Below, piece after piece: positions 9,801 through 24,857 of a stretch of DNA of 24,857 nt. The stretch spans positions 1 through 24,857 of the IMG/VR virus record IMGVR_UViG_3300037991_003040; one strand, 5' to 3'. Source of the stretch: a virus (Duplodnaviria; Caudoviricetes). A program made the position numbers and the translations under genes. Numbering within the stretch: the first letter of the stretch is position 1; each line of letters begins with the position of its first letter. The notes below the pieces were generated by a model, which worked only from the letters and a program-made list of their open reading frames with translations, did not search any database and was not told the DNA's origin.

Positions 9801-11399
9801 TATTATCCAGGTGCTTTACCGCCTATAGTAAGTGTTATAGCTACAGATAATGATTTATTTGATGGTGTTAATGAACCAGGTTATGTTCCTTCAGCAGAGT
9901 TTTATAATGTAGATTCTGATCCACTTATAGCTAGAATAAACACTCCTTCAAAACAATTTGGTGTTCCTGTAACAATAACACAGGGTACAGTAGGAGATGT
10001 TACTAATGCACCTTATAACGCTTTAAATGAAATAGGAATAACACAGTCTACTATTGTACCAACCCCGTACACAACAGCGATTTTTCCAGGTCAAACAATA
10101 AGCGGAAATGGTATACCAGAGGGTACAACAGTAACCTCTGTTTCTAATGCTGGTACCGCATCGTGTTCTACTTGTAGAAGAATAGTAATGAGTAATGATA
10201 GATTACCTGGTATTGCTGTTGGTGATGTAATGACTTTTTCACCAACAAATAATACAAAATTACAAAACTGGGTAACAATGCCTCAGCTAGCTGTTATGGA
10301 AACAGATCCTGTAACATCTAATTTAGATATATTTTGGGAATCAACAACAACTGGTTTAATTAATGATTTGAATGAAGCTATATTAAACAGTACGCAGTCA
10401 ACCGTTACTTTAAGCAGTTTTAATACAGATGCTTTTACAGAAGCAATAGTACCAAATCAAAGTGGTGCAGCTAGTAGAATATTATCAGCTAACTTTACAC
10501 TGCAAGATGAGTTTGGAAATAATATAAACTACATTGATCAGTCACCAGCTCAAATAGAATTAACTAGTGTTGTTAATTTACAGGGTGATGATGTTGGTCC
10601 TGGCTCAACAAATCCTAAATTTGAACTTGAAACTATAAATAGTACAGCAGGTGCTCCAGGTTTATATAACATAAAAGCTAAAGATTTCTTTTATTTTAGT
10701 CAACAAAATCAAACAAAAGATACTTTTACTTTTACCTTTACTTTAAATATTAATGGAGTTCAAACAATTATAACAAAAACACCTGTTGCTTTAGGAAATG
10801 AAGACCCAACAATAAGTAGTGCTAGACCTTGTCCAGGTTCTGGTGGAGTAACTTATTATCCAGGTATTACAGGAGGTGGAACCGGAGTTTTTGTAAATAT
10901 AGGTGGTTTTAATGGTTCAGCAGGAACTTTACAAGGATTAGCTTATTTAGATTTATCAGCTAGTGTAAGTGTTGTAAAAGGAGGTGTTGATTATGGTCCA
11001 GCTGGAACCGCTGATGTAACTGTAACAACAACCCCGTTTAGTACAGCTTTAAATGCTCAGCTTGCTTTTGCAGGAGGTGATCCTCCTAATAGTATGGTAG
11101 ATGGTACATATGTGGTTACTTTAACATTTGAAGATGCCGGTGGCGATACGGTTAGTTGTACATTTAATTTACACATAGAAAGAGATCCATGTTATACATA
11201 TAGATATACTTATACAAATAGTGGTAATGTAATAACTTCTGTAGCGTATCAAAATTGTGATGGTGAAAGTGTTGTTACTTCTTTTGTAGATAATCAATCG
11301 CCACCTATGCAAAACATAGTTTGCGCACCAAATAATACAACCGCATTAACTAATGTTGGTTTTGTAAAAGATAATAATCCAGGATTCCCTTGCAATTAG
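6879..11399 (+). CDS. Muzzle / tail-stabilisation protein, N-terminal part with inserted beta modules and an Ig-like C-terminus (1506 aa)
   Basis: The N-terminus NNFIKGRMNKDLDDRLIP.GEYRNAMN and the motifs LLFFTDNRNQPRVIN, FVRFSYRFKY, NRVVYSNY and YQVGIVLSDRYGRSS fit crAss-like muzzle (P22 gp10-like) proteins. Confidence 0.75.
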   Translation: MAKISNNFIKGRMNKDLDDRLIPVGEYRNAMNAQVSKSEGQNVGALENVLGNTKIADFRTLTSTNDLKSIGYFADEINNIVYVFLTNNTGVTYDPSKKNFLYSYNTLTSTTTQLLQGAFLNFSTQNPMIGVNLLEDLLFFTDNRNQPRVINVNSAFSNAQGLKDFYTNEDQISVAKYYPYQPIEVYRKAGNLPVTYIETVTLTSSTQAYSAGTTFNVSTASAGNAAITVGMTMFCKSDCTAANLSIPPDTVVTSVTNTAFNAFDITVNKDINLTGSNGKFYFTSVPDEGAYETTMYDVTSKAYPNGGTGNINGTVGSATNSIDLISSTIQGDIIPPYTGSLGATVAYIDPTTGKLINTGARVQAFNYSQGSSSNPPTSRVTLNQNIGPFSVANTELVFNYNHYYDHEFNGDKDFLRDKFVRFSYRFKYENNDYSIMAPFTQPCFIPKKDGYFMYKVNQVTAPPSGVANYRTNPPPLDIQDEEDTYRSTVVEFMENKNDKIILRIPSPTSISEAQMKTGSVAASLKVIEVDLLYKESDGLSVSVIETIPVSQFGASYKYAFVNGQTTQSTSVTIDGISGVTGSRIKVGDIVRGNGIVGAPTVVSTNNVNNVVLSSAQSLADNTKLEFGDEYYFDYHYQSQKPYKVLPDNEITRTYDKIPVKAFGQEIISNRVVYSNYQDKHTPPNFINYNVGVSEKTEFNAGTGSTTTSASEASGQTVLSVNTPTGVYNNGAIVTSPEPGIPNNTTLVEYDPAGPTITISNALTATLPSGSVINFTAPNNVRYTTSDIEYPNSSLKQNRNYQVGIVLSDRYGRSSTVILNDEDNSRLFENQRYIGSTVFSDYLDTGVDQLSWFGNSLKVLFNDPIAGGGAGLYNGDATSVNYNPLGWHSFKVVVKQTEQEYYNVYLPGVMAAYPDDPIKELGKTSHSVLINDNINKVPRDLTLVGPEQRQFRSSVVLHGRVENLKNNDPAENNKQYYPGALPPIVSVIATDNDLFDGVNEPGYVPSAEFYNVDSDPLIARINTPSKQFGVPVTITQGTVGDVTNAPYNALNEIGITQSTIVPTPYTTAIFPGQTISGNGIPEGTTVTSVSNAGTASCSTCRRIVMSNDRLPGIAVGDVMTFSPTNNTKLQNWVTMPQLAVMETDPVTSNLDIFWESTTTGLINDLNEAILNSTQSTVTLSSFNTDAFTEAIVPNQSGAASRILSANFTLQDEFGNNINYIDQSPAQIELTSVVNLQGDDVGPGSTNPKFELETINSTAGAPGLYNIKAKDFFYFSQQNQTKDTFTFTFTLNINGVQTIITKTPVALGNEDPTISSARPCPGSGGVTYYPGITGGGTGVFVNIGGFNGSAGTLQGLAYLDLSASVSVVKGGVDYGPAGTADVTVTTTPFSTALNAQLAFAGGDPPNSMVDGTYVVTLTFEDAGGDTVSCTFNLHIERDPCYTYRYTYTNSGNVITSVAYQNCDGESVVTSFVDNQSPPMQNIVCAPNNTTALTNVGFVKDNNPGFPCN
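7470..10240 (+). repeat. About five divergent 70-90-aa beta modules inserted in the muzzle gene (approx. 7470-7727, 7800-8073, 8550-8760, 8985-9203, 9980-10240)
   Basis: Shared pattern G-x-x-(V/I)-x-G-x-G-I-P-x-x-T-x-V...I-x-(L/I)-S...(L/I)-x-F. Examples: IKVGDIVRGNGIVGAPTVV, IFPGQTISGNGIPEGTTVTSV, NGAIVTSPEPGIPNNTTLV, VGMTMF...SIPPDTVVTSV. Similarity is seen at protein level only; boundaries are approximate. Confidence 0.6.
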
Positions 11400-11436: not shown

Positions 11437-12942
11437 ATGCCAGCAGTAATTGAAGTTAAATATTTTAATACTTTTGTTCTCAAAAAGGTAAACGATCAAG
11501 TTGACTATGGAGGAAGTCCAGGTGGTTCTTTTGGTGAAATACCAATATGGAACGGTTCTAAGGGTATACCACAAACAAAAGGTGGATATGCTGGTCCTGC
11601 TGACACTGATGCAAACGATTGGGCTATAGAAGAATCAAGAATTAGAGGTGGTTATAATAATACTTCTGTGTCTTTTGGTGCTAAAGCTTATTTAGTAGAA
11701 GAAGAGCCAAACGGAAGTATAAGAGGAAATAGTATGATATATTCTGGAATATATAATTCTAGAACTGGTATAAATAGAACTAATGTTTTTTCTGTTGGTA
11801 CTGATATAACTAAATCAGTTGATCCAGCAAATGGCTCTATACAAAAACTTTATGCTGAAGATACTAATTTAAATATATTTCAAGAGTTAAAGATTAGTAG
11901 AGCATTGATAGATAAAGATGCTATATACTCTGCTGAAGGTGGTGGAGCTGTTACTAGTTCTAACTTAGTAATAGGAGCAATACAACCTTATCCAGGTAAA
12001 TTTGGTATTAGTAGTGATCCTACTAGTTTTGCTGTTTATGGAACAGCTAAATACTTTACAGATAGAGCAAATAATGCTGTATTAAGATTAGCTGGTGGTC
12101 AAATATCAGAAATAAATAAAGCAAACATGATAGACTATTTTAGAGATAGAATAGGTTATTCAGGTGTTAATTCAATTGATGTAGCAGGTGTAAGAGGAAG
12201 CATTATAGGTGGTTGGGATGTTTATAATAAACAATACGTTGTTTCAACTCAACAAGCTGGTAATCTTAAAAATACTTTTGATCAAGGTTATGAAACCCTA
12301 TCATGGGATGAAAACGTACAGGGTTGGACTAGTTTCTTTAGTTATAAACCAGATCAAATGCTTAGCATTGGAAGTAAGTTTTATAGTTTAAAAGATGGTA
12401 AATTATACGAACACTACTCTCAATCTGGTACAAGAAACTTGTTTTATCCAGATCAAGGAGGTGTAACAGCAACACCTACTTCTATTACTTTTGTTTTTAA
12501 TCCTAATGTAAATATTTCTAAAAACTTTAAAACAGTTGATTACGAAGGAAGTAATGGTTGGCAAGTAAATAGTTTTGTTTCTGATTTAACAGGTAAAAAT
12601 TTAAGTCATACAAATATAAACTGGGTTGATTTTCAAGATACAAGTGCTTTAATTTATAGTTATACTCAAGGTCAATATGACGCGGCGGGTAATGTGTATC
12701 CTAATGCTAATCCACCTTTTTTCTATGCTGGATTTAATAGAAAAGAAAACAAATATGTAGCTAATTTAGTTAATAACAGTACAGCTATGCCAAGTGAAAT
12801 AGCATTTGGTAATTCAATGTCTGGTATTAAAGGATTTTTTGCTACAGTAACAATATCAACTGACTCGGTTACAGATCCGGGTGGTGAAAAAGAATTATTT
12901 TCTGTTGGTAGCGAATATATAGCTAACAATGGTTATCAATAA
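11437..12942 (+). CDS. Muzzle / tail-stabilisation protein, C-terminal part (501 aa)
   Basis: Motifs YSGIYNSRTGIN, DPANGSIQKL, GGWDVYNKQY, TLSWDENVQGWTSFFSYKP, KNFKTVDYEG and KENKY resemble the C-terminal portion of crAss-like muzzle proteins. Confidence 0.65.
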   Translation: MPAVIEVKYFNTFVLKKVNDQVDYGGSPGGSFGEIPIWNGSKGIPQTKGGYAGPADTDANDWAIEESRIRGGYNNTSVSFGAKAYLVEEEPNGSIRGNSMIYSGIYNSRTGINRTNVFSVGTDITKSVDPANGSIQKLYAEDTNLNIFQELKISRALIDKDAIYSAEGGGAVTSSNLVIGAIQPYPGKFGISSDPTSFAVYGTAKYFTDRANNAVLRLAGGQISEINKANMIDYFRDRIGYSGVNSIDVAGVRGSIIGGWDVYNKQYVVSTQQAGNLKNTFDQGYETLSWDENVQGWTSFFSYKPDQMLSIGSKFYSLKDGKLYEHYSQSGTRNLFYPDQGGVTATPTSITFVFNPNVNISKNFKTVDYEGSNGWQVNSFVSDLTGKNLSHTNINWVDFQDTSALIYSYTQGQYDAAGNVYPNANPPFFYAGFNRKENKYVANLVNNSTAMPSEIAFGNSMSGIKGFFATVTISTDSVTDPGGEKELFSVGSEYIANNGYQ

Positions 12943-12966: not shown

Positions 12967-13641
12967 ATGCCAGGACCCGCAGGAATGATCATAGGCGGCG
13001 CTTTACAATTAGGCGCAGGTATTTTCGGCTCAAGAAAAGCTAGAAGAGAAGCTGCTCGTATGAAAAAAGAAGCCGCTAGACTACAGGGCAAGCTTGATAG
13101 GCTGGAGGCTAATAGACAGCAAATAATAAATCCTTATGAAAATATAACAGATTTAAGCGGTAGTTTATCTAATCCTTTTGCTAGTTTAGGAGTTGCTACT
13201 CAAGCTGCTGAAATGCAAATGGAGCAAACAGATATAGCTTTAGCTAATACTCTTGATACTATTAGAGCTACAGGTGGTGGAGCTGGTAGTGCTACAGCTT
13301 TAGCTCAAGCAGCTTTACAAGCTAAAAAAGGTGTTGCAGCTAGTATTGAACAACAAGAAGTTGCTAATGAAAGACAAAGAGCTCAAGGTGAAGCAACATT
13401 ACAACAACAAGTAATGTCAGAAAAACAAAGAGTACAACAAGCTGAAGTTGCTGGAGAACAATTTGTGTTTGAGCAAAGAGAAAATAGAGAATTAATGCAA
13501 CTTGATAGATTATCAAATCAAATAGGCGCTTTACGTGGAGCAGCTGCTCAAGCAAATGCAGACGCTACTTCTATAGGTTTAGGAGCAGTAGGAGGATTAA
13601 TGAACACGGCTACAAGCGCTGGATTATTTGGCGGATCTTAA
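12967..13641 (+). CDS. Putative DNA ejection / internal virion (pilot) protein (224 aa)
   Basis: Gly/Ala-rich hydrophobic termini (AGMIIGGALQLGAGIFGS; IGLGAVGGLMNTATSAGLFGG) flank a Q/A/E-rich coiled coil. This layout is typical of small podovirus ejection proteins encoded after the nozzle/muzzle gene. Confidence 0.65.
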   Translation: MPGPAGMIIGGALQLGAGIFGSRKARREAARMKKEAARLQGKLDRLEANRQQIINPYENITDLSGSLSNPFASLGVATQAAEMQMEQTDIALANTLDTIRATGGGAGSATALAQAALQAKKGVAASIEQQEVANERQRAQGEATLQQQVMSEKQRVQQAEVAGEQFVFEQRENRELMQLDRLSNQIGALRGAAAQANADATSIGLGAVGGLMNTATSAGLFGGS

Positions 13642-13651
13642 TATATTTAAA

Positions 13652-14752
13652 ATGGAGAAAAATATACAAATAAACTTATTTATTAAGCAGTTAAACCAAA
13701 GCAATGCTTTAGCACATACTCCTATGTATTTAGCTCATAGTGCTGATTATAATTTTAAAATATTAGACACTGCTTATTTTGAAACAGGTAAAATGTACGC
13801 TGCTTTAAAAACAGCTATAAATACAAACCGATGCTCTGATCCTTCTTGTTTTGAAGAGAATGAAAAATTAAAATTTTTACAAGAAGCACCTGAAAAATCT
13901 TTAGAATTTTTAAGTAATTTAGCAGATCAATTATCAGTCACAGAAGATACGTACTACGATGTTAATCAAAATTATCAGTTTTCTGTAGCTAACTCTATAT
14001 TTACAGGTAAACCTATGTTTGCTAAAAGCGATGGTTATAATATAATACTTCAACTTCAACAAGATGGTTCACAGGTTATTACATTTGCTGGTCCTATGCT
14101 AGAAAAACCTCTTATTGTAAACAGTGATACTTTATCGGCTTTATTAGAAGCTGGTAGTGATATGGTTACACCAACACCAGATATAAATGGAGACATGTTA
14201 AGATTAGTCTCTGAAGTTGGTGTTTTAGCAGGTAAATCAACTAACCCAGAAACAGGTGAATTATTACCTGGAGCTAAAATAGCTGATGAGTTTGTGTTAA
14301 AAAACCAAGATGGTAGCTATAACTATGAAATAATAGATATAGGTATGGGTAAAGGTAGAAACATACTTAAATTTGATTTAGATAAAATAGAAAGAAAAGT
14401 AACTCCTTTTATAGAAGCAGAAGTCGCTGGTCTTTTAACCAATGAAGCTTCTGTTGTAGCTGCTTGGAACGTATTTATAGCTAAAGGAACTAGTGTAACA
14501 GAAGATGATGAAATGGTTCAAAACGCAAATGCAGCTGCTGAATCTTGGGATTATGAAAAAGATTTACCATTAGAACCTAAGAAAAAAGATAAGTTCATGG
14601 AAAAATATAAACAATATTTCATGAATAATTATTTAAAACAATTTACTACAAATCAAATACCAACCGTTAAAGCTGATGCAGCTGTTTTTGATCTTGAAGA
14701 AGCTAAAAAAGCAAAAGCGCAAAAGTTTATAGACGATAATAAATTAGCATAA
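13652..14752 (+). CDS. Hypothetical protein, possible cargo/ejection protein (366 aa from ATG13652)
   Basis: The ORF track starts at TTG13628 inside the previous gene. ATG13652, with an A/T-rich leader 10 nt after the upstream stop, is the more likely start. Lies between the pilot protein and the giant protein; no motif recognised. Confidence 0.55.
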   Translation: MEKNIQINLFIKQLNQSNALAHTPMYLAHSADYNFKILDTAYFETGKMYAALKTAINTNRCSDPSCFEENEKLKFLQEAPEKSLEFLSNLADQLSVTEDTYYDVNQNYQFSVANSIFTGKPMFAKSDGYNIILQLQQDGSQVITFAGPMLEKPLIVNSDTLSALLEAGSDMVTPTPDINGDMLRLVSEVGVLAGKSTNPETGELLPGAKIADEFVLKNQDGSYNYEIIDIGMGKGRNILKFDLDKIERKVTPFIEAEVAGLLTNEASVVAAWNVFIAKGTSVTEDDEMVQNANAAAESWDYEKDLPLEPKKKDKFMEKYKQYFMNNYLKQFTTNQIPTVKADAAVFDLEEAKKAKAQKFIDDNKLA

Positions 14753-14753
14753 C

Positions 14754-17700
14754 ATGGCAGACAACTTATTAGACTATATAAGTTCTTTACATGATGAGGG
14801 ATTGAATGATGAACAAATCTTTCGATTAGCTCAAATATGGAAGAAAGAAAATCCTCAACCAGAAGTTGAAGAAGTTGAAGAAGTTGTTGAGACTAGTGGA
14901 CCACAGCAAAAGTTTTTTACCACTATTGATTATAGTCAATTAAACTTAAGTAACTCATTTAATCCTATTGATATTAGTTTAAGCTCAATACAAGATAGAG
15001 TAAATTTTACTGAAAGACAATTATTAAAGAATCAAAAAGAACAAGAAGGTGAACAAGTTGAGTTAGAAGAAATAGAACTAGTAGCTAATAATCCTTATAA
15101 TCCCGTAGAAATGGGTGAGCATCTTGGTCTTGACGTTTGGACAAATATAAATGATAAATACGATACAAGTGGTCTTAAAAAATTAGGTGAATGGGCTAAA
15201 AATAATAATACTTATACTCAAGATTTAGGAGGTCCAAATGAAAATACTTATGATTTAAATGAGCCTATTGTTTTAGGTGGTAATGAAGTAGCTATTGATG
15301 ATTATTTAAATGACCAGCTTAAACAACCGGCACATTGGGCTATGGGTGAAGATAGAAACAACCAGACAACTTGGATGTTTACAAATGATCCTACCGCGCA
15401 GCAAAAAATAAAAAACAAATACTTTAATGGATTAGGTGAAGATGAAAAAGGTTATGGTCCAGATATTTTTAAAGGTATCGCTCCTGTAAACTTACCTGAT
15501 CTTCAAGGTAGACGTATTTTTGCTGGTATGCAAGAAGTTAAAGATCAATGGAATTGGGATTATGATCAAATATTTAATTGGGGTGAAAGATATTTAGACG
15601 AAGATGAATTAGAGTTTAAAAATTTAAACACGCTTGCCTCTAAAATAAAAGAAGAAGATGCTGATATTGACTCTTTAATACCACAAATAGAAGATATAAT
15701 TTCTAAATATGAGCCACCAGCTGAAATAGATAGAGGCGCAAAAAATGAAGCTCTTGAAGAGTTTAAATCACTTGTAAAACAAGCTAGAGAAACAAAAGAT
15801 TATAGTAAAGTAATAGAATACATAGCTAAAAAAGAAAACTACGGCACTAAACTATACGATACTACTACAGGTGAAGTTATAGGTATAGATAAAGCTACAA
15901 CTAAAGATTTAGAAAATTACGAAAAATCAGAAGAATTAGCTATAACTACTGAATATGAAGATCTTGAATTAGGATTAGAAAGTCAGTATTATAAACTTTT
16001 AACATTAGCTAAAGACGTTAGAGAATTAAATAATACATTTGGGCAGGGTAGAACAGGTTTTACAGGTATGGATAGTGCTTCTAGCTTGATACCTGGTGTT
16101 GTTCCCGGTATAATTAGAGATGAAGATAACAATATAGTAGGATATACAGATGATTTCTATACAAGTCAAAGTGGTATTTATTCACCTGATGAATATCAAA
16201 GACTTATGGAAAGTCACCCTGATTGGAATACAGGTGACATTGATTTTACATATCCAGTTGGTAACTTAAGATCTCAAAATGGTTTATTACCTAAAGGTCT
16301 TATAGAAAAAATTACTGAGTTTATAAACACAGGTGAAATACCAGCTGGTTTAAAAGAAATACCTTCATCACATCCATTAGCAGCTGCGTATAACCAGGCT
16401 TTAAATGGCTATGTTGTTTTTAATCAAGCAATGCAATTAAATAGAAATCCTATATTTATGAAAAGCTCTATAGAGGCAGCAGAAGTTGTTGATGAAGCTA
16501 TGAATATGTTTGGAGACAATATAGTTACTACAAATGAAAGAAAAAATTTATTTGCTGATGCTTTAAACGATATAGGTTTTGATGTAAGTCCAGAAGAAAT
16601 AACAGATCAATTAGATAAAGGTTTTGGAAACAAAGTAAGTAGAGGTTTAGTTGTTTTTGGAGGATTTTTAGCTGAATTAGGTTTAACTAGAAAGGTAACA
16701 CCTGTTAGTGGACAAAGAGCTACAAAGCTTTTTCAAGACATTGGTGCTAGATCTGGTATTTATGCTAGAAGTCCATGGGCTAAAACAGCTATAGATTTAA
16801 CAGCTAAGTCTATAGGTGAAGCTGCTGACTTTGCAATGACAACAAAACTATACGGTGAAGATGGTGAAAGCGCTTTAGATTCTGCTTTATTTGGTGCTTC
16901 TATGCCTTTTGGTCAAGCTATATTTAAAGGTTTTTCAACTTTTCTTAATACTAGATATATAGCTGGTTATACACCTATAATGCAGCGTTTAATGAAAGAT
17001 CCTACACTTAGCAAAGTTATTACAAGAACTGGTGAGGCTCAAGCAGGGGCATTTTCATACCAAACAGGTAGCGCGTTTAGCTCTTTTGTTTTAGACACTG
17101 GTAATTATTTAGAAAGTTTAGAAGCAGAAGGTTCAAACTTATTTGAAAAGCATGTAGAGGAAACCCTTAAAATGATGATAATGGGTAGAGTTGGTAAAGG
17201 TGTTAAAGGTATGGAAAACATATCTTACTCTTTACAAAACAGTTTTGTTAGATTAAACAATAAAGGTAGATTAAATAAAGACTCTAGAGACGCGGCAAAA
17301 TCACTAGGAATAGATAACAATATTATAAAAAATCCTAAAGCAGACTCTTATGAAAAAGTTATTGATGCTCAAACAAAAGCATTAGAAGAGTTAAAAAAGA
17401 AAAAAGAAAGCATGGGTTCAAAAGAATATGAAGATGCTTTTAACGAAATACTAACTAATACTCAAAGATTAAAAAATCAATTAGCTCTTAATGAAGTATC
17501 AGATATTATAAAAGAAAATAGAAAAAAGCCAGATGGTAAGTTAATAACAGACGATCAACTATTTATAATATCAAATAAAATAAAAGCTGGTTCAAAACTA
17601 ACTGAAACAGAATCAGATATACTCGGTCAACCAGGAACTCCAACTAGATTAGTTGCTGAAAGATTAGGTATAGAACCTGGGTCACCAGCATATAATACAT

Positions 17701-20700
17701 TAAAAAATTATTTATTACGTAATAGATATATACAACATCAGTTAAATGGTGGTGGTGCTTTTTATATGGAAAATGGAGTTGGCTTTACAGCTCAAGGTGA
17801 ATTTTATACTTCAAATCCTAAAACAAGAAAAGAAGCTTATAACTTTTTAATGAAAAGAGAAGAGCTTAATGATCAATTAAGAACTTTAGAAAATCAATTA
17901 AAAGGCGAAGGTCTTAGTGAAAGTGAAAAAATAAATATAAAAAGCGAAATAGACGCTTTAAAGTTAGAAGTATTTAGATATTCTAAAGGCGGGACAACAT
18001 ATGAAGCTTTACAAAGTAAAATTAAAAAAGAAAACTTAGAAGTATTAACAGAAGAGTTAGCTATGGAATATGATTTACCTGGTGGTAAAACAACTCCTAA
18101 AACTTCAAAGCAAGATTTTCAAGATAGTTTTAATAAATGGGTTGAAGCAGGTGAAGTAAAAGCTCAAAATGTTAAAGAAGAAGTAGCGGTTGTAAACCCA
18201 AAAACAGGTGAAGCTTTTATAAACTTAGAGGTTGCTACTAAGATTAAAGATTTTACTAGTAAAAACCATGAAGATATTCACAAATTTTTATTATATTCTT
18301 TAAAAGATAATAACAATAAGGTAACTGATGAAGGTATTAAACTTATAGATGATACTTTATCTCAATTATCAGATAATCAAAGAGCTGTTTTAGACGCAGA
18401 AGTTAGTTCTAGGTATGATACTAAAAGACCACAAAATGAGTGGTATGAAGAAAACTTATCTGTTTTATCAGAACTAATAAAGAGTAAAAGAATAACATTT
18501 ACAGAAGAGCTTGGTGAAAAATTAAAAGGTTTTGTACCTTTCTTAAAACAAAAAGGCTTAGAAAACGTTGATCCAGAAAATGTAACTGGTAAGCAAATGT
18601 TTGATATGATTAAAGGTTTTGCTGAAGGTAAAGAAAACGCAGCTATACAAGTTGAGCAGTTTGCTAGAGATGCTGCTAAATTAAGAGGCGAAGAAGTTAG
18701 TGCTGTTCCTGTAGAAACAACAAGATCTGCTAAGAAAAACGCTAATGAATTAGTATTAGAGTTTAAAGAAAATAATCCTACTATAAACAGTCAAACTAAT
18801 ATACCTAAAAATTTATTAGATCAAATGTTTACAATGACGGCTGATGCTTGGAAATTTGATGTGAAAAAAGGTACTAAAACTCAGCAAGAGTTTGAAAGCG
18901 AAGCTCAATTATATTTTACAGGTATATTAAGAAGATTTAATCCAGACAGAGGTGTTAAGTTTAGTGATTTCTTTTATGCAAATATAAAACCTAAAGCTCA
19001 AAAGTTTTATCAAACACTAGAAAAAGAAACAATTACTGATAGTGCTGATCAAAGAAGAGAACAAGGTAAAGAAGTTGTAGAAACTGAAGAAATGGTGTTG
19101 ACAGAGGAAAGACCTACTGATACTGAAGGACTTGCAAAAACACCTACCTCAACAACAATATATAAGCCAGAAGCTTTAGGTACTTTAGGTATTGCTCAAG
19201 AAGTAATAGATCAGAAAAGAGGCGAAGGTAAATCTGACAATGAAATAATAAACGAACATATCACGGAGGTAATTGAAAGAAATTTTGAAGGTATAGATAT
19301 AAGTAAGTTTAAAGACGCAAAAGTTCCTAAAGAAATAGCAGAGCTTTACGCGAATATGTTTGGTATTGAAACAGTTACTGGTCTTACAGAAAAGGCGAGA
19401 AACTTTCCTAAAAAAGACGAACAAGCTTTAATTAGACTTAGGCAGTTTTTAGTTGATAATTCAGCTGCTGATTTTGCTAGACTACCTAAAACAGTAGACA
19501 TGCTTGGAAGAGGTACTGGTGTTTATCAGAATAAGTTTGGTAAAGCAATGTATGATGCTGAGGGTAATCTTGTAGGTACATTAAAAGATTATAGAGATAT
19601 ATTACAAGGTAAAAATGTTACAGTAAACGGTATAGAGTTTAATGCTGTAGGCAAAAATGGTAAACGTAAGCCTATATATAGAGGTGATTTACAAGCTAGT
19701 ATAAAGTTTGCTACTGATATGCACATGCGTAATAATATACTTGAAAGAACTAGTACGCAAGGTGAAAGACTTCAAATGGGCGGTAGATTTAGCAAACCAA
19801 AAGAAGAAACGGTAACCGCAGAAGAAATTATAGAAACACCATATGGATCTTTAGCTGCTAGCAAAAAAACATTTGAAACTAGCTTTAATGAATATTTAGC
19901 TGAAAAAGGATTACCACCATTACCAACTGACTCTAAAGAAAGAGTTAAAATGTATAGAGATCTTACATTAAATCAATTAGTAGATAAGTTTGGTGATTTA
20001 ACTCCTCAAGTAATAAAATGGTTGGGATACGGTGGTATGAGGGTTCCAACTAGAAAAAGCGGTACAGGTGGCTTAATGGTTGGTGTTAGCCGTCAGCTTC
20101 AAGATGTTGTAAATAAATATGGACTTTATAAAAACGAAAATGATCCAGAATCTGGATACACAAAAGAAGTTGAAGATTATATAAAAGCTAATAGAGAAGG
20201 AAGTATATTAGAACTTGAATTATTAGGTCAAGAAGTAAGTCAAGAAATAATTGACAGAAAAATTACAGAAGCTAGAATTGAAGGATATGAAAATAAAATA
20301 AATCCTGAGACTAATAAAAAATATACTAGAGAGCAAGCTGAAGAAGCTGTTGCTGAAGAAAGTAGAAAAATGGCATTGGCTTTGCAAACTCAAACACTAG
20401 GTAAATTAGAGAAAAATAAAAGAGAATATGAAGATATTCAAGCAGGTAAAGAGTTAATATTTGATAAGTTTAGAGAAATATATAAAGAAAACCCTGATAA
20501 ACTTGGAGCTTTAATTAGCATGATTTATACTGGTAATGCAACAAATCATCCGTTTAGAGGTTTTGCTACTGTGTTAGGGGCAGAAAAAGGAATTAAGCCG
20601 GGTGATAAATTCCAGAGAGAAGAACACGTTTTTCAGTATGGTAATTTTGCAGATGCTTTTACCAAAGCTATAAGTGGTAGTGATAAAGTTTATGAAGGCT

Positions 20701-23700
20701 TCAAAGAGTGGGCTAAAGAAAAATATTTTCAAATAAAAGTTAGTAAAGAAACTAAAGATATAATTGATCAAGGTGTAATAACAACTAATAGGTATACAGG
20801 TGAAACAATTGAAGGATATGGTCCATCTGATGGCTTACACCCTAAGTTTGAAGCTCGTTTAAAAGAAGCTTTAGAAACAGGTGATTTTAGTAAAGTACCA
20901 GATCCGAGATATAGGTATTATAACGAGTATCTTACTGCTAACCCTAATAAAATAGGTAGAGAATATTATAATGAAACCACTAAAAAGTGGGAATACAGAA
21001 CTGACGCAGAAGATTACAATGTAGCAGTAAAACCTAAGTTTAAAGACAATGCTATTGTAATCAGCGAACAAGGTAGATTAATACAACGAGTGATTGAATC
21101 TGAATCAGGTATATTAAACGAAGATAGTCCATTGTTCTTAACTAGAACACAAGCTAAAGAGCAAATGGATGCTTTTATGTTGCTAGAACCTAGTGTAAAA
21201 GCAAGTTTAAGTAAACAAAAAAATCAATATGTAGGTGGTAAATCTCCTAATTTAGATACAGTAGAAGGTTTAGTATATCATTTAGCTCAAACAGACGCTG
21301 CCGCTAGAAACGCTAGAAAACTTAATAAAGAGAAAAAATCTTTAACAGCTTTTGATGCTGACGAAACATTAGTTGTTACAAAAAGTAAAGTCAAAGTAGA
21401 GATGCCTGATGGTACAAAATTTGAACTAGATCCAAACGAATTTGGTGCTCAAGCTAAAGAATTAGAGTCACAGGGTGCTAAGTTTAACTTTGATGACTTT
21501 ATGACAATAAAAGGTGGTGAAGAAGGACCTGCGTTTAAAAGATACTTAGAGCAGTATAAACAACACGGTGGTGAAAACATGTTTGTATTAAGTGCTAGGC
21601 CAAAAGAGTTTGCTGCTCCAATGCAAGCTTGGTTAAAGTCAAAAGGTATAGATATACCAGTAGAAAATATTATAGGTTTAGGAAATGGTACACCAGCCGC
21701 AAAAGCAAATTGGTTTATAAACAAAGGTGCAGAAGGTTATAATGATTTTCTATTTGCAGATGATATATTGCCAAATGTTAAAGCTGTGCAAGGAGTTATA
21801 GATGTGTTGCAAATTGATGGACCGGTTCAAGCTAGATTAAGTTCTAAACCTAAAGAGTTTAACGAAATATTTAATCAAAATTTAGAACTTAGAACAACAG
21901 AGCTTGGTAGTAAAGTTGGTGCTGACTGGCAAATATCTGAAGCAAGAGCTCAAACAATGGGTAGACGTAAAAACATGAATATGTTTGAAAACTTTTTCAT
22001 GAGTTATTCAGCGGAAGATTTTAATGGTTTATTATACGCAACTCTTCCAAAAGGTAAAGCAGGTGAAAACATGTTCCAGTTTTATCAAGAAAATTTAATT
22101 GATCCATTTAATTTAGCTGAAAGAAAAATTGAATCTGCTAAAATAGCAGCTTCTGCTGATTTTAAAGAGCTTAAAAGTAGATTAACTAACCTACCTAAAT
22201 CAATGAATAAGGAAACTGGTATAGGTGGTTTTAGTTTTGGTGATGCTGCTCGTGTTGCTATATGGACAGAACAGGGCATGGAAATACCTGGTTTATCTAA
22301 AAGAGACGCTAAAGAATTAAATAAATTTGTTAGAGATAATTCAGATCTTAGTATTTTTGTTCAAGAGGTTATAAAGATGCAAAAAGGTAAACAATACCCT
22401 AAACCAGATAAAAACTGGATTGCTGGTACCTTGACAACAGATATAATGGGTGAGATAAATAAAGTAAATAGAGCTGAGTATTTACAAGAGTGGCAAGAAA
22501 ACGTAGACATTATATTTTCTCCAGAAAACAAAAGAAAACTTAGATATGCTTTTGGTGATAAATATGTTGAAGCTTTAGACGATATGTTAAGACGTATGAA
22601 AAGCGGTAATAATAAACCTATTGGTGGATCTAGAACTGTTAACAATATGCTTGATTGGGTTAATGGTTCTGTTGGAGCTACGATGTTCTTAAACACTAGA
22701 TCTGCTGCGCTACAAACAATATCTGCTGTAAATTATTTAAATTGGGGTGATAATAATCCATATGCAGCTGGTAAAGCTTTTGCTAATCAAAAACAGTATT
22801 GGAAAGATTTTACAACATTATTTAATTCAGATTATTTAGTTAATAGAAGAGAAGGTCTTCAAATAAATGTAACTGAATCAGAAATAGCAGATGCCGCAAA
22901 AAAAGATGGAGCTAAAGGAGCTATAGCATATTTATTAAATAAAGGTTTTGTTTTAACTAGAGGAGCTGATAGTTTTGCTATTGCAAGTGGTGGTGCTACT
23001 TTTTATAGAAACAGAATAAATACTTATGAAAAACAAGGAATGAGTACTGAAGAGGCTCAGCGTAAAGCTTTTGATGATTTTAGAAAAATATCAGAAGAAA
23101 ACCAGCAGTCTAGTAGTCCTATGAGAATTAGTCAACAACAAGCAAGTGGAGGTGGTAGATTAATACTAGCTTTTAAAAACACACCGATGCAGTATGCTCG
23201 TATAATAAAAAGATCTACGCAAGATTTAATAGCTGGTAGAGGTGATTGGAAAACTAATGTTTCTAAAATAGCTTATTATGGAGCTGCTCAAAACTTAATA
23301 TTTAATGGTTTACAAAATGCTATTTGGACAGAAGCGTTTGATGAAGATGGAGATGGTACAGAAAAAGGAGCTAGAACTGCAAACGGCATGGTTGACTCAC
23401 TTTTAGGTGGTTTAGGTTATCAAGGATCAGTAGCTGTTGCTATTAAAAATTCTTTAATAACAATAGCTAAAGAATCAGGTAAAGATTCTCCAGAGTTTAG
23501 AAAAGCTGTTAATGACTTACTTGATTTTTCACCACCAATTGATGTAAAAGCTAGAAAACTAATATCTGCTGCAAATACATTTAGTTGGGAAAGACAAGCT
23601 ATGAAAGAGGAAAGGTTTAACCTAAATAATCCAGCTTACTTAGCTACAGCACAAGTAGTTTCAGCTGCAACAAATATACCAGCGGATAGAGCTTTACAGA

Positions 23701-24035
23701 AAATAAATAACACTCGTATGATACTTAGTGATAATTCTGAAAAGTGGCAGAAAATAGCATTAGCATTAGGTTGGAGTACTTGGGATGTTGGTTTACCATA
23801 CTACGGTGTTCCTAGCACCGAGCCATTAAGTCCTGAGCGTGAAATGGAGAATAGAGAAATTGAAATGCGACAGAACACTAGTACTAAAGAGCAAAAACAA
23901 TTGTTAAAAGAACTTGGTTTAACAAATAAAGAAATTAGAGAATTAAGATACGAAAAAGATAGAGTTAAAAAAATAATAGCACTACAAGATAAAAAGAAAA
24001 AAGATGAAGAAAAAACTAAAACTGGTGGTAGATAA
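14754..24035 (+). CDS. Giant polyvalent (probably virion-ejected) protein, 3093 aa: zincin metallopeptidase, sigma70 region-2-like segment, HAD phosphatase and a helical C-terminal domain
   Basis: Uninterrupted 9.3-kb ORF starting 1 nt after the previous stop, in the ejection-protein position. Gly/Ala-rich hydrophobic segments at ~16640-17200 and ~22640-23790. Internal motifs are listed as separate features. Confidence 0.8.
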   Translation: MADNLLDYISSLHDEGLNDEQIFRLAQIWKKENPQPEVEEVEEVVETSGPQQKFFTTIDYSQLNLSNSFNPIDISLSSIQDRVNFTERQLLKNQKEQEGEQVELEEIELVANNPYNPVEMGEHLGLDVWTNINDKYDTSGLKKLGEWAKNNNTYTQDLGGPNENTYDLNEPIVLGGNEVAIDDYLNDQLKQPAHWAMGEDRNNQTTWMFTNDPTAQQKIKNKYFNGLGEDEKGYGPDIFKGIAPVNLPDLQGRRIFAGMQEVKDQWNWDYDQIFNWGERYLDEDELEFKNLNTLASKIKEEDADIDSLIPQIEDIISKYEPPAEIDRGAKNEALEEFKSLVKQARETKDYSKVIEYIAKKENYGTKLYDTTTGEVIGIDKATTKDLENYEKSEELAITTEYEDLELGLESQYYKLLTLAKDVRELNNTFGQGRTGFTGMDSASSLIPGVVPGIIRDEDNNIVGYTDDFYTSQSGIYSPDEYQRLMESHPDWNTGDIDFTYPVGNLRSQNGLLPKGLIEKITEFINTGEIPAGLKEIPSSHPLAAAYNQALNGYVVFNQAMQLNRNPIFMKSSIEAAEVVDEAMNMFGDNIVTTNERKNLFADALNDIGFDVSPEEITDQLDKGFGNKVSRGLVVFGGFLAELGLTRKVTPVSGQRATKLFQDIGARSGIYARSPWAKTAIDLTAKSIGEAADFAMTTKLYGEDGESALDSALFGASMPFGQAIFKGFSTFLNTRYIAGYTPIMQRLMKDPTLSKVITRTGEAQAGAFSYQTGSAFSSFVLDTGNYLESLEAEGSNLFEKHVEETLKMMIMGRVGKGVKGMENISYSLQNSFVRLNNKGRLNKDSRDAAKSLGIDNNIIKNPKADSYEKVIDAQTKALEELKKKKESMGSKEYEDAFNEILTNTQRLKNQLALNEVSDIIKENRKKPDGKLITDDQLFIISNKIKAGSKLTETESDILGQPGTPTRLVAERLGIEPGSPAYNTLKNYLLRNRYIQHQLNGGGAFYMENGVGFTAQGEFYTSNPKTRKEAYNFLMKREELNDQLRTLENQLKGEGLSESEKINIKSEIDALKLEVFRYSKGGTTYEALQSKIKKENLEVLTEELAMEYDLPGGKTTPKTSKQDFQDSFNKWVEAGEVKAQNVKEEVAVVNPKTGEAFINLEVATKIKDFTSKNHEDIHKFLLYSLKDNNNKVTDEGIKLIDDTLSQLSDNQRAVLDAEVSSRYDTKRPQNEWYEENLSVLSELIKSKRITFTEELGEKLKGFVPFLKQKGLENVDPENVTGKQMFDMIKGFAEGKENAAIQVEQFARDAAKLRGEEVSAVPVETTRSAKKNANELVLEFKENNPTINSQTNIPKNLLDQMFTMTADAWKFDVKKGTKTQQEFESEAQLYFTGILRRFNPDRGVKFSDFFYANIKPKAQKFYQTLEKETITDSADQRREQGKEVVETEEMVLTEERPTDTEGLAKTPTSTTIYKPEALGTLGIAQEVIDQKRGEGKSDNEIINEHITEVIERNFEGIDISKFKDAKVPKEIAELYANMFGIETVTGLTEKARNFPKKDEQALIRLRQFLVDNSAADFARLPKTVDMLGRGTGVYQNKFGKAMYDAEGNLVGTLKDYRDILQGKNVTVNGIEFNAVGKNGKRKPIYRGDLQASIKFATDMHMRNNILERTSTQGERLQMGGRFSKPKEETVTAEEIIETPYGSLAASKKTFETSFNEYLAEKGLPPLPTDSKERVKMYRDLTLNQLVDKFGDLTPQVIKWLGYGGMRVPTRKSGTGGLMVGVSRQLQDVVNKYGLYKNENDPESGYTKEVEDYIKANREGSILELELLGQEVSQEIIDRKITEARIEGYENKINPETNKKYTREQAEEAVAEESRKMALALQTQTLGKLEKNKREYEDIQAGKELIFDKFREIYKENPDKLGALISMIYTGNATNHPFRGFATVLGAEKGIKPGDKFQREEHVFQYGNFADAFTKAISGSDKVYEGFKEWAKEKYFQIKVSKETKDIIDQGVITTNRYTGETIEGYGPSDGLHPKFEARLKEALETGDFSKVPDPRYRYYNEYLTANPNKIGREYYNETTKKWEYRTDAEDYNVAVKPKFKDNAIVISEQGRLIQRVIESESGILNEDSPLFLTRTQAKEQMDAFMLLEPSVKASLSKQKNQYVGGKSPNLDTVEGLVYHLAQTDAAARNARKLNKEKKSLTAFDADETLVVTKSKVKVEMPDGTKFELDPNEFGAQAKELESQGAKFNFDDFMTIKGGEEGPAFKRYLEQYKQHGGENMFVLSARPKEFAAPMQAWLKSKGIDIPVENIIGLGNGTPAAKANWFINKGAEGYNDFLFADDILPNVKAVQGVIDVLQIDGPVQARLSSKPKEFNEIFNQNLELRTTELGSKVGADWQISEARAQTMGRRKNMNMFENFFMSYSAEDFNGLLYATLPKGKAGENMFQFYQENLIDPFNLAERKIESAKIAASADFKELKSRLTNLPKSMNKETGIGGFSFGDAARVAIWTEQGMEIPGLSKRDAKELNKFVRDNSDLSIFVQEVIKMQKGKQYPKPDKNWIAGTLTTDIMGEINKVNRAEYLQEWQENVDIIFSPENKRKLRYAFGDKYVEALDDMLRRMKSGNNKPIGGSRTVNNMLDWVNGSVGATMFLNTRSAALQTISAVNYLNWGDNNPYAAGKAFANQKQYWKDFTTLFNSDYLVNRREGLQINVTESEIADAAKKDGAKGAIAYLLNKGFVLTRGADSFAIASGGATFYRNRINTYEKQGMSTEEAQRKAFDDFRKISEENQQSSSPMRISQQQASGGGRLILAFKNTPMQYARIIKRSTQDLIAGRGDWKTNVSKIAYYGAAQNLIFNGLQNAIWTEAFDEDGDGTEKGARTANGMVDSLLGGLGYQGSVAVAIKNSLITIAKESGKDSPEFRKAVNDLLDFSPPIDVKARKLISAANTFSWERQAMKEERFNLNNPAYLATAQVVSAATNIPADRALQKINNTRMILSDNSEKWQKIALALGWSTWDVGLPYYGVPSTEPLSPEREMENREIEMRQNTSTKEQKQLLKELGLTNKEIRELRYEKDRVKKIIALQDKKKKDEEKTKTGGR
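18180..18480 (+). other. Zincin-like metallopeptidase (MPTase-type) domain in the giant protein
   Basis: AVVNPKTGEAFINLE...TSKNHEDIHKFL gives HExxH at 18267-18281 (aa 1172-1176), preceded by two strands. A downstream WYEE helix (18441-18452) could supply the third Zn ligand. Confidence 0.7.
18800..19010 (+). other. Sigma70 region-2-like segment in the giant protein
   Basis: QEFESEAQLYFTGILRRFNPDRGVKFSDFFYANIKPK aligns by eye with the sigma70 region 2.2-2.3 consensus DLIQEGNIGL.KAV.RFDP.RG.KFSTYA.WWIR. The core RFNPDRGVKFSDF is at 18933-18971. Confidence 0.5.
21336..21815 (+). other. HAD-superfamily phosphatase domain in the giant protein
   Basis: All four HAD motifs occur in order: I LTAFDADETL (D at 21354 and 21360), II MFVLSAR (S at 21591), III AAKANW, IV FLFADD..PN (DD at 21759-21764). 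Confidence 0.8.
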
Positions 24036-24093: not shown

Positions 24094-24152
24094 TGAAAAA
24101 TGAAAAAACTGATATGTGTCCTATTTGCGGCGGTTATTGCGGTCTCTGCTAA
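24093..24152 (+). CDS. Cys-rich microprotein, 19 aa: MKNEKTDMCPICGGYCGLC
   Basis: The ATG is coupled to the upstream TAA. It has two CxxC pairs and overlaps the signal-peptide codons of the next gene in another frame. It could be a frame-shift by-product of Ala/Val codons. Confidence 0.4.
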   Translation: MKNEKTDMCPICGGYCGLC

Positions 24153-24857
24153 CGCTCAAGAAAAAAAGAGTTTATTTAAATCTGTTTACGATGAGCTGTT
24201 TAAATACGGAACAATATACGTAGCAGGTGATATTAAAAATCCTAGAGAAAATCCAAAAGATTATTTTGTAAGAACAAACCCAGATGGTAATTTATATACA
24301 CCACCTGTTGTTGTTGATGGTACAGACTATTACGACTTTGATTATCGTTATGGTTTTGGTATTAGAAAAATTGCTAGGTTTGATTATGAAATTAAAGGCA
24401 AACAATACTACGATGGTACTGAATCTAACGTAGCTATGACAGCTCCTAATTCATCTATTAAAGGTTTAGAGTATGTTATACATGTTGAAAAAGAAAGATC
24501 CAGAGATGACGTTTTTAAAAATCATCGATATTTCTTAAAACACAGCGGTAAATATCATATTGTTAAACTTGAAAGTAGAAAACAAGGTAAAGTTAATTTT
24601 AATTATAAGTCTGCTGAGGTTAGAGCTAAGTTACCTATTGGTAAAAAGTTTAGTATATCTGCCGGGGCTATGTATCGTACACATGAAAGAGCTTACGGAT
24701 ATAATCCAATTGAAATATGGTTAAATGAAACAGACAGTAACGGCTGGCCTGTTAATTACTGGTATCAACTAGGTTATAACTATGGTTATACTGATCAATG
24801 GGTTACTATTGATATTGATGGTGAAGAAGTTTATGATTACTATTGGTATGATCCACA
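24100..24857 (+). CDS. Secreted / outer-membrane beta-barrel-like protein, 3'-truncated (at least 252 aa)
   Basis: Missing from the ORF track because there is no stop in the window. Manual translation is open to the end: MKKLICVLFAAVIAVSANA|QEKKSLFKSVYDELFKYGTIYVAG...YDYYWYDP. Typical Sec/SPI signal with Gln at +1. Tyr/Phe/Trp-rich alternating strands (FDYRYGFGIRK, GLEYVIHVE, SAEVRAKLPIGKKFSISAGAMYR). Confidence 0.75.
   Translation, partial: MKKLICVLFAAVIAVSANAQEKKSLFKSVYDELFKYGTIYVAGDIKNPRENPKDYFVRTNPDGNLYTPPVVVDGTDYYDFDYRYGFGIRKIARFDYEIKGKQYYDGTESNVAMTAPNSSIKGLEYVIHVEKERSRDDVFKNHRYFLKHSGKYHIVKLESRKQGKVNFNYKSAEVRAKLPIGKKFSISAGAMYRTHERAYGYNPIEIWLNETDSNGWPVNYWYQLGYNYGYTDQWVTIDIDGEEVYDYYWYDP

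Follow-up and report, generated by a model that had tools for sequence, protein, structure and literature searches.

The DNA analysed here is a window of 24,857 nucleotides (nt), positions 1 to 24,857 of the IMG/VR virus record IMGVR_UViG_3300037991_003040, and its largest open reading frame (ORF) encodes a giant protein of 3093 amino acids (aa), P0001. An earlier note on this DNA had described P0001 as a polyvalent-type modular protein, and the present analysis supports that description: a zincin-type peptidase, a predicted sigma-domain-2 (sigma-2) fold and a HAD phosphatase are contained in one ORF. In our overall reading, which we regard as evenly poised between right and wrong, P0001 is a large ejection protein that is cut at its junctions, releasing a sigma-2 unit that binds RNA polymerase (RNAP) and a phosphatase that repairs ends. 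The main features of P0001 are as follows, with positions counted from the first nucleotide of the window.

14754..24035, plus strand: P0001, a modular giant of 3093 aa and ~348 kDa; its gene is third and largest in a putative ejection-protein trio (ORF call and synteny)
14754..18050, plus strand: N-terminal region, residues 1–1099, charged, Gly/Ala-rich at 600–800; common to only a subset of homologues
18051..18698, plus strand: zincin-type metallopeptidase (MPTase), residues 1100–1315; HEDIH at 18267–18281, distal Glu1233 at 18450–18452
18717..19031, plus strand: sigma-2-like module, residues 1322–1426 (fold, ESM Atlas and PDB profile)
19137..19766, plus strand: module M1, residues 1462–1671, mostly helical, confidently modelled
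19869..20390, plus strand: module M2, residues 1706–1879, found only in close relatives
20391..21203, plus strand: EH module, residues 1880–2150, with E1957-H1958 on a strand and R2054; enzyme-like, nuclease being a guess
21306..21869, plus strand: HAD phosphatase, residues 2185–2372; motif I DADET at 21354–21368, motif IV ADD at residues 2335–2337
21876..23813, plus strand: conserved, family-defining C-terminal anchor, residues 2375–3020 (profile and homologue searches)

The 3093-aa ORF is real. It lies behind a muzzle-like gene and two smaller genes of 224 and 374 aa, and the motifs picked out in the earlier note are at their places: one single HExxH (residues 1172–1176), the EH pair (1957) and the HAD DxDxT (2201). 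The Gly/Ala segments are present as well (residues 600–800 and 2700–2900, Gly plus Ala fraction 0.21–0.25), but they are only mildly hydrophobic; the best 19-residue Kyte-Doolittle mean is 1.18, so these stretches are not canonical transmembrane helices. Neither the whole nor the windowed protein gave a significant Pfam or PHROG family (best Pfam E 0.099), comparison with PDB sequences gave nothing at E ≤ 1, and tblastn with residues 1–3000 and 1322–2160 against cultured phages gave no match.

By sequence search, P0001 belongs to a large marine family. Its C-terminal 650 residues matched 156 IMG/VR stretches, 80 of which were kept, and the C-terminal profile matched 3153 clusters at 50% identity, 1586 of them at E ≤ 1e-30. 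No family was matched consistently by the C-terminal domain itself (best DUF885, 5 of 52 members), so that a label of LPD38 has no support. The homologue set consisted of 198 proteins of at least 1800 aa, namely 131 of 150 listed representatives and 67 proteins from loci, including P0001. The C-terminal anchor is present in 195 of the 198, HAD in 128, M1 in 57 and EH in 41; these four scored modules occur in 12 combinations, in proteins of 1803–3864 aa, and some relatives carry extra modules (kinase, DUF6934). The comparison of domain content proposed in the earlier note thus revealed module swapping. In locus L035, a DUF6934-like module (E 2e-4) occupies residues 2529–2633 of the giant protein, between HAD and the C-terminal anchor and near FSK-type motifs. 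The same contig has a second, tail-to-tail copy of the kinase-HAD-C-terminal part of the giant gene (18703–21816, minus strand), which may be a paralogue or an assembly join. In L021, L044, L053 and L055, two ORFs share the giant gene between them, through either a real split or a sequencing error.

Structure models were made of residues 1100–1315 and 1322–2160 (839 residues) only. The first covers the peptidase, for which both sequence and fold bear out the reading of HExxH as a zincin site. The motif is found in 60 of 67 full-length homologues; H, E, H and the distal E are invariant in 47 aligned domains. The model has a predicted local distance difference test score (pLDDT) of 79 and places strands at 14–17, 46–48 and 55–58, followed by helices at 70–84 and 134–144. 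Its top four VIA matches have the fold of lethal-factor/PPEP zinc peptidases (best Z 6.1, root mean square deviation (rmsd) 4.5, 148 aligned), and in BFVD it resembles polyvalent-type phage proteins. The peptidase profile matched PDB only at E > 0.3. Five of the seven HExxH-less proteins retain a recognisable domain with [EQ]ExxH; in L036, L043, L074, L059 and L054, EExxH or QExxH replaces HExxH and the distal EE is kept. In L045, a P-loop kinase stands directly behind the peptidase (residues 793–941 of the giant protein), not within HAD.

A motif of x-K-F-S-K type recurs in the family: it follows M1 and EH, precedes HAD and the C-terminal anchor, and is weakly represented behind the peptidase. 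Counted as [FYML]S[KR], it is found in 16 of 24 post-M1, 24 of 52 pre-HAD, 32 of 63 pre-C and 8 of 16 post-EH windows, where 6–10% would be expected. Strict copies number 105 against a shuffled mean of 35.7 (maximum 56), which is about 3-fold. The junctions within one protein are more alike than those between proteins (z 2.8–3.7 by permutation; 66 non-redundant proteins, n = 16–44 per pair), with in-step variants such as FSNA in L049, FSDS/YSDS in L079, KSSKK in L007 and SASR in L029. In the controls, the mean z was ≤ 0.3 with random windows and 1.1, 0.6 and 0.0 with shuffled ones. On this sequence evidence, the junction motif looks like a protein-level cutting site. The candidate sites and linkers of P0001 are listed below.

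18723..18737, plus strand: candidate junction site 1, RSAKK, residues 1324–1328; degenerate, at the FSK/MSK position of relatives
19026..19136, plus strand: acidic, predicted disordered linker between sigma-2 and M1; junction motif usually missing
19767..19868, plus strand: predicted disordered linker, residues 1672–1705, pLDDT <50, with two candidate sites
19782–19799, plus strand: candidate junction site GRFSKP, within the 1672–1705 linker
19851–19868, plus strand: candidate junction site LAASKK, within the same linker
21198..21215, plus strand: candidate junction site KASLSK, residues 2149–2154 (motif/position)
21834..21848, plus strand: candidate junction site RLSSK, residues 2361–2365 (motif/position)

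If all five sites were cut, the predicted pieces would be of ~149, 40, 2.5, 51, 23 and 82 kDa. The linker between sigma-2 and M1 is acidic and of low model confidence, and the motif is found in only 2 of 43 such linkers, versus 36 of 43 after M1. Due to this rarity, sigma-2 and M1 would travel as one ~40 kDa piece.

The motifs might also be DNA microhomologies used in module shuffling, with no function in the protein. Module swaps do occur at the motif points, and the Lys after Ser in the KFSK motifs is encoded by AAA in every copy at 12 loci (the same codon in 28 of 28 pairs vs 19.6 expected). However, the Ser codons switch between AGY and TCN within one gene (8 of 28 pairs agree in codon vs 7.9 expected), and only 13 of 28 pairs share the codon of the first Lys, fewer than the 19.6 expected. 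The codon data largely refute the microhomology explanation, which we consider highly improbable; the mixing of AGY and TCN indicates that selection on the junction motif acts at the protein level.

The second model begins with the sigma-2 module. The earlier note had called this part sigma-2-like, and the fold bears this out, with weak support from sequence. Of the top 29 VIA rows, 26 bear the title of a sigma factor or a sigma-type subunit. The best is 7d7d_F (Z 8.3, rmsd 3.4, 96 aligned), which we regard as T4 gp55 in view of its residue range and of PMC7892883; the AR9 promoter-specificity subunit 7S01 gave Z 6.3. In the ESM Atlas the module reaches a score of 0.97 with viral Sigma70_r2 clusters, in which 41% and 14% of the members carry the Pfam family. 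In the PDB profile search, the top match is a sigma at E 0.011, followed by a non-sigma at 0.018. PF04542 matches inside the giant ORF of one homologue, at the sigma-2 slot (E 1.3e-4), and P0001 itself has no Sigma70_r2 match in Pfam. Taken together, these results point to a predicted sigma-domain-2 fold in P0001.

The remainder of the second model gave fewer matches. The sigma matches stop near model residue 108, and a domain-4 helix-turn-helix was not recognised; M1 was modelled only within the 839-residue model. With narrow sigma and M1 alignments, no PDB profile match fell below E 0.2, and Foldseek of the 839-residue model against PDB gave no match at E ≤ 0.001; since M1, M2 and EH were fold-searched only within this larger model, the null result says little about them. 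We dismissed as noise one BFVD row titled 'RNA polymerase (Fragment)' (E 0.0038, TM 0.09, rmsd 34), and an iterated sigma-slot profile (178 of 188) was not used as proof because of possible drift. A homologue search with the sigma module returned 4 proteins, none with Pfam families. In the ESM Atlas, stand-alone viral proteins of ~120 aa resemble the module (18726–19073), and Foldseek paired a 119-aa protein of Tenacibaculum phage pT24 with the 839-residue model (probability 0.98).

We think it reasonably likely that the sigma-2 module binds RNAP; the chance that it activates rather than blocks transcription is about even. In one alternative, the module is an injected decoy that sits on the beta-prime clamp helices and displaces the host sigma (shut-off), and a separate phage sigma drives transcription. 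This would agree with the match to sigma being confined to domain 2 (model residues 1–108), M1 having matched nothing, and with the existence of small stand-alone viral sigma-2 proteins. A separate sigma-70-type gene of 250–263 aa is indeed carried by 3 of 5 near-complete relatives (G001, G003 and G005; L086–L088 and L090), G005 having two matches, one near each end. However, T4 gp55 can initiate basal transcription with a sigma-2 domain and a short extension (PMC7892883, in the part of the text available), and the joined state of sigma-2 and M1 would suit a two-part specificity factor. We regard the decoy as rather doubtful.

The HAD phosphatase proposed in the earlier note is supported by its motifs and by its relatives. 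In P0001 all four motifs are intact (DADET, LSAR, AK and ADD); of the 128 HAD carriers, 125 have intact motifs I and IV. Matches to HAD-type Pfam families were obtained in relatives, DUF2608 in 44 of 56 and PF12710 in 7 of 56, and the HAD alignment found nothing below E 0.2 in the PDB profile search. In L035 and L040, an AAA_33/Zeta kinase is inserted in HAD after motif I; counting kinases either close upstream or inserted, a kinase motif lies within the 420 residues preceding the HAD end in 10 of 128 carriers. P0001 has no Walker A kinase. The Pnkp-like kinase inserted in the HAD of relatives suggests an end-healing role, and our analysis suggests that HAD resembles a nucleic-acid end-healing phosphatase, not a generic host-takeover enzyme. 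That it acts on RNA or DNA ends we consider slightly favoured. Of the host-takeover kit envisaged in the earlier note, the modules (protease, sigma-2 fold, phosphatase) are supported.

The EH..RY motif of the same note proved to be conserved, but it could be matched to no fold. None of the 28 EH domains compared deviates at E1957, H1958 or R2054, and the module was modelled confidently. There was no fold match in the model searches, nothing below E 0.2 in the PDB profile search, and only scores below 0.9 with low recognition in the ESM Atlas; a homologue search with the module returned 3 proteins, none with Pfam families. The EH pair is on a strand, followed by a later strand and a helix, in which no residue is conserved at 70%. 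This arrangement may recall the beta-beta-alpha core of His-Me finger (HNH) nucleases, which carries a His plus other metal ligands.

The earlier note had found no credible RNAP DFDxD motif in P0001, and there is indeed no D[FY]DxD in it. A conserved DxDxD is absent among the 198 homologues, with one stray match at residue 172 of P0015. The virion RNA polymerase (vRNAP) of phage phi14:2, used as a query, found nothing at E ≤ 1 among 86 proteins of the family. The same query matches 147 phage records, down to 22% identity and including only 2 Cellulophaga records; the host of Elemovirus is not among the hosts listed for these matches, and the cultured kin are likewise unmatched. We could think of P0001 as hiding a very divergent vRNAP, considering that its position resembles the phi14:2 cargo block and that its two ends lie outside the structure models. 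Against this stand the two negative sequence comparisons and the models themselves: residues 1322–2160 form separate, mostly helical modules, and no double-psi beta-barrel was seen in the modelled residues 1100–1315 and 1322–2160, the only parts folded. A hidden polymerase is extremely improbable.

Our own-phage data are confined to the window, and the genome-level comparison for vRNAP was made on relatives, 6 distinct genomes in all. The phi14:2 vRNAP found nothing in 5 of 5 near-complete relatives, and its core found nothing in 4 of 4 relatives, with phi14:2 itself as a trivial positive. That no vRNAP was found in the 6 relatives and the cultured kin makes its absence a lineage trait, not a swap in one phage. 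The lack of vRNAP in the relatives, together with the separate sigma in 3 of 5, makes the lineage appear dependent on host RNAP, as far as sequence searches go.

The idea of a crAss-like phage that had swapped out its vRNAP is not supported. The capsid (85 matching records) and the portal (87) resemble mainly those of Elemovirus, Maribacter phage Panino, Cellulophaga phi38:1 and Calle (Pervagoviridae), as well as Pachyviridae, with 26–53% identity among the matches listed; the slot of these nearest phages holds another giant protein. The family names are from sequence records and PMC8776804 (part of the text). Judged by the nearest capsid and portal matches, with no tree, the phage is a podophage nearest Elemovirus/Pervagoviridae and outside Crassvirales; it is an uncultured marine phage, probably of Flavobacteria.

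Taken together, the following course of events is proposed. P0001, as the largest of three ejection proteins, would travel in the particle and enter the host together with the DNA; its packaging in the virion is very probable. It would be cut at Ser-Lys junctions by its own zinc peptidase, either in the head or after entry. Cutting at the motifs is, from the sequences, somewhat likely, and whether the in-chain peptidase does it is a question on which we lean neither way. The delivered cargo would comprise the sigma-2 unit, which would bind host RNAP, the phosphatase, which would repair nucleic-acid ends, and further enzymes; the conserved ends would serve packaging or passage. The phage would in this way take over the host polymerase rather than bring its own. 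Going further, P0001 might represent a third route to early transcription, used by an abundant marine lineage, in which a packaged non-canonical sigma (sigma-2 with M1, ~40 kDa) is released by self-cleavage at a co-evolving Ser-Lys motif and injected to redirect host RNAP before phage gene expression, along with an end-healing phosphatase directed against host nucleases; we offer this only tentatively.

Several observations weigh against the reading as a whole. The structure models leave residues 1–1099 and 2161–3093 of P0001 uncovered, and the sigma Z values of 6–8 are middling by the fold-search tool's own note. Of 56 slot segments, a single one matched Sigma70_r2 at E ≤ 0.05 (E 0.0073; 16.5 bits vs a cut-off of 24), and the slot profile reached 0.5% probability against three phage sigma ORFs. 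The strict motif count in P0001 is 0; RFSK at 1679 alone comes close to the canonical form, and the remaining four sites were assigned by position. The junction windows were picked after inspection of the data, and the sequences are related. Enrichment at the junction behind the peptidase is weak (10 of 46 in one count, 8 of 43 in another), and composition explains part of one covariation test (shuffled mean z 1.1; 3.6 in 1 of 12 replicates). Across 41 proteins, the motif correlates with the adjacent C-terminal domain (partial r 0.20, p 0.011) no less than with the peptidase (partial r 0.15, p 0.038), and 3 of the 7 HExxH-less homologues (L036, L043 and L074, with Glu for the first His) retain 3–4 motifs. 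According to the part of Iyer et al. 2017 (PMC5512222) available, certain proteins with an MPTase (N4 vRNAP, ArdC, TraC1) stay uncut when they are packaged or transferred.

The weak correlation of motif with peptidase, and the persistence of motifs where the first His is replaced, would be expected if P0001 were injected whole as a conduit or scaffold. The motifs would then be a sorting, unfolding or packaging signal, or the site of another protease, and the peptidase would target peptidoglycan or host proteins. In the parts of the two preprints available, the metallopeptidase of phi24B gp47 is proposed to have a role at peptidoglycan (bioRxiv 10.64898/2026.04.10.717836), and such a role is one option for phi14:2 gp65 (bioRxiv 10.1101/2020.03.07.982082). 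However, the variation of the motif in step across the junctions of one protein (FSNA, FSDS, KSSKK and SASR types) is expected of an enzyme site, and most HExxH-less proteins keep the peptidase domain. Delivery of an uncut protein is unlikely in our view, and release of cargo by cutting remains the reading that we adopt. The family supplies predicted sites and fragment sizes, which make polyvalent self-processing testable. A virion-delivered sigma-type factor, if true, would be a new way of starting phage transcription; no report of one was found in the open-licence literature.

By Pfam and PHROG matches, the window is a structural block in which portal, capsid, tail ring and muzzle-like genes are followed by the 224-aa, 374-aa and 3093-aa genes. 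The genes directly upstream of P0001 are the following.

11437..12942, plus strand: muzzle-like gene, C-terminal part (Pfam crAss_MUZ/MUZ_C, PHROG)
12967..13641, plus strand: 224-aa gene, probable small ejection/pilot protein (role inferred from position)
13628..14752, plus strand: 374-aa gene, probable middle ejection protein (role inferred from position)

Among the 59 loci with at least 2.5 kb upstream, a homologue of the 224-aa gene adjoins the giant gene in 57, and a homologue of the 374-aa gene is present in 18. The muzzle-like protein is apparently split, 6879–11399 and 11437–12942 matching the N- and C-terminal parts of phrog_14478. Downstream of P0001, an open-ended ORF (24100–24857) has a signal-peptide-like start and is aromatic-rich; it has homologues in 22 of 80 loci and no Pfam or PHROG match, and an outer-membrane protein would be a guess.

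Compared to known systems, P0001 shares its position after the muzzle and two smaller genes with the slot proteins of Elemovirus (3694 aa), Panino (1829 aa) and phi38:1 (gp101, 1691 aa); another slot protein has 3859 aa. The 224-aa gene and phi38:1 gp99 are syntenic by position only. Different from P0001, these slot proteins have no detectable C-terminal anchor and no BLAST similarity to it. The Elemovirus slot protein has the peptidase in common with P0001 (hidden Markov model E 1e-6; Foldseek probability 0.99, E 0.029), and the N-terminus of the Panino protein matches 4 members of the P0001 family. The Elemovirus and phi38:1 slot proteins are annotated 'structural', a label for which no origin in mass spectrometry was found. 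In phi14:2, the cargo block consists of gp65 (zincin), gp66 (virion RNAP) and gp67; fused polyprotein forms of the crAss-like block are regarded as cleaved (bioRxiv 10.1101/2020.03.07.982082, as far as available). Like the crAss-like block, the P0001 region has large proteins downstream of tail and muzzle genes, a zincin and, if our reading is right, delivery of an early-transcription function; unlike it, P0001 has no DFDxD and no detectable gp66 homology, and the phage is outside Crassvirales.

Like T4 gp55 and AR9 7S01, P0001 has a predicted sigma-2 fold and, as far as modelled, no recognisable sigma-4. T4 gp55 acts as a free factor in late transcription and is produced in the course of infection, whereas the P0001 domain lies within a likely virion protein and is fused to M1. 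The pairing of a DxDxT phosphatase with a P-loop kinase in some relatives recalls T4 Pnkp, as described in the available part of PMC3592404; the kinase of the relatives is inside HAD rather than N-terminal, and P0001 lacks it.

The closest parallel is with the polyvalent proteins, for which self-processing by a zincin MPTase has been proposed since 2017 (Iyer et al. 2017, PMC5512222). In the part of that paper available, the proposal rests on phage P1 DdrB, without a mapped recurring site, and the MPTase is described as an HExxH helix behind a small beta sheet, with a Glu on the next conserved helix; the P0001 peptidase model fits this description. P0001 resembles these proteins in having unrelated catalytic domains in one large chain, a central MPTase with HExxH and a distal Glu, modules that are swapped between relatives, and a gene in the late/virion block after portal, capsid, tail and muzzle. 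It differs from them in that the available main text of PMC5512222 has neither 'sigma' nor a HAD domain, and in its recurring junction motif, which is not mapped there; no paper mapping such motifs was found in the open-licence literature on polyvalent-protein processing, and no LPD or MPTase Pfam family matches P0001. A related case is phi24B gp47, a polyvalent protein of 2811 aa that was found in virions by proteomics and is a proposed ejection protein, according to the accessible part of the preprint cited above. On the features testable here, P0001 is a variant of the known polyvalent proteins.

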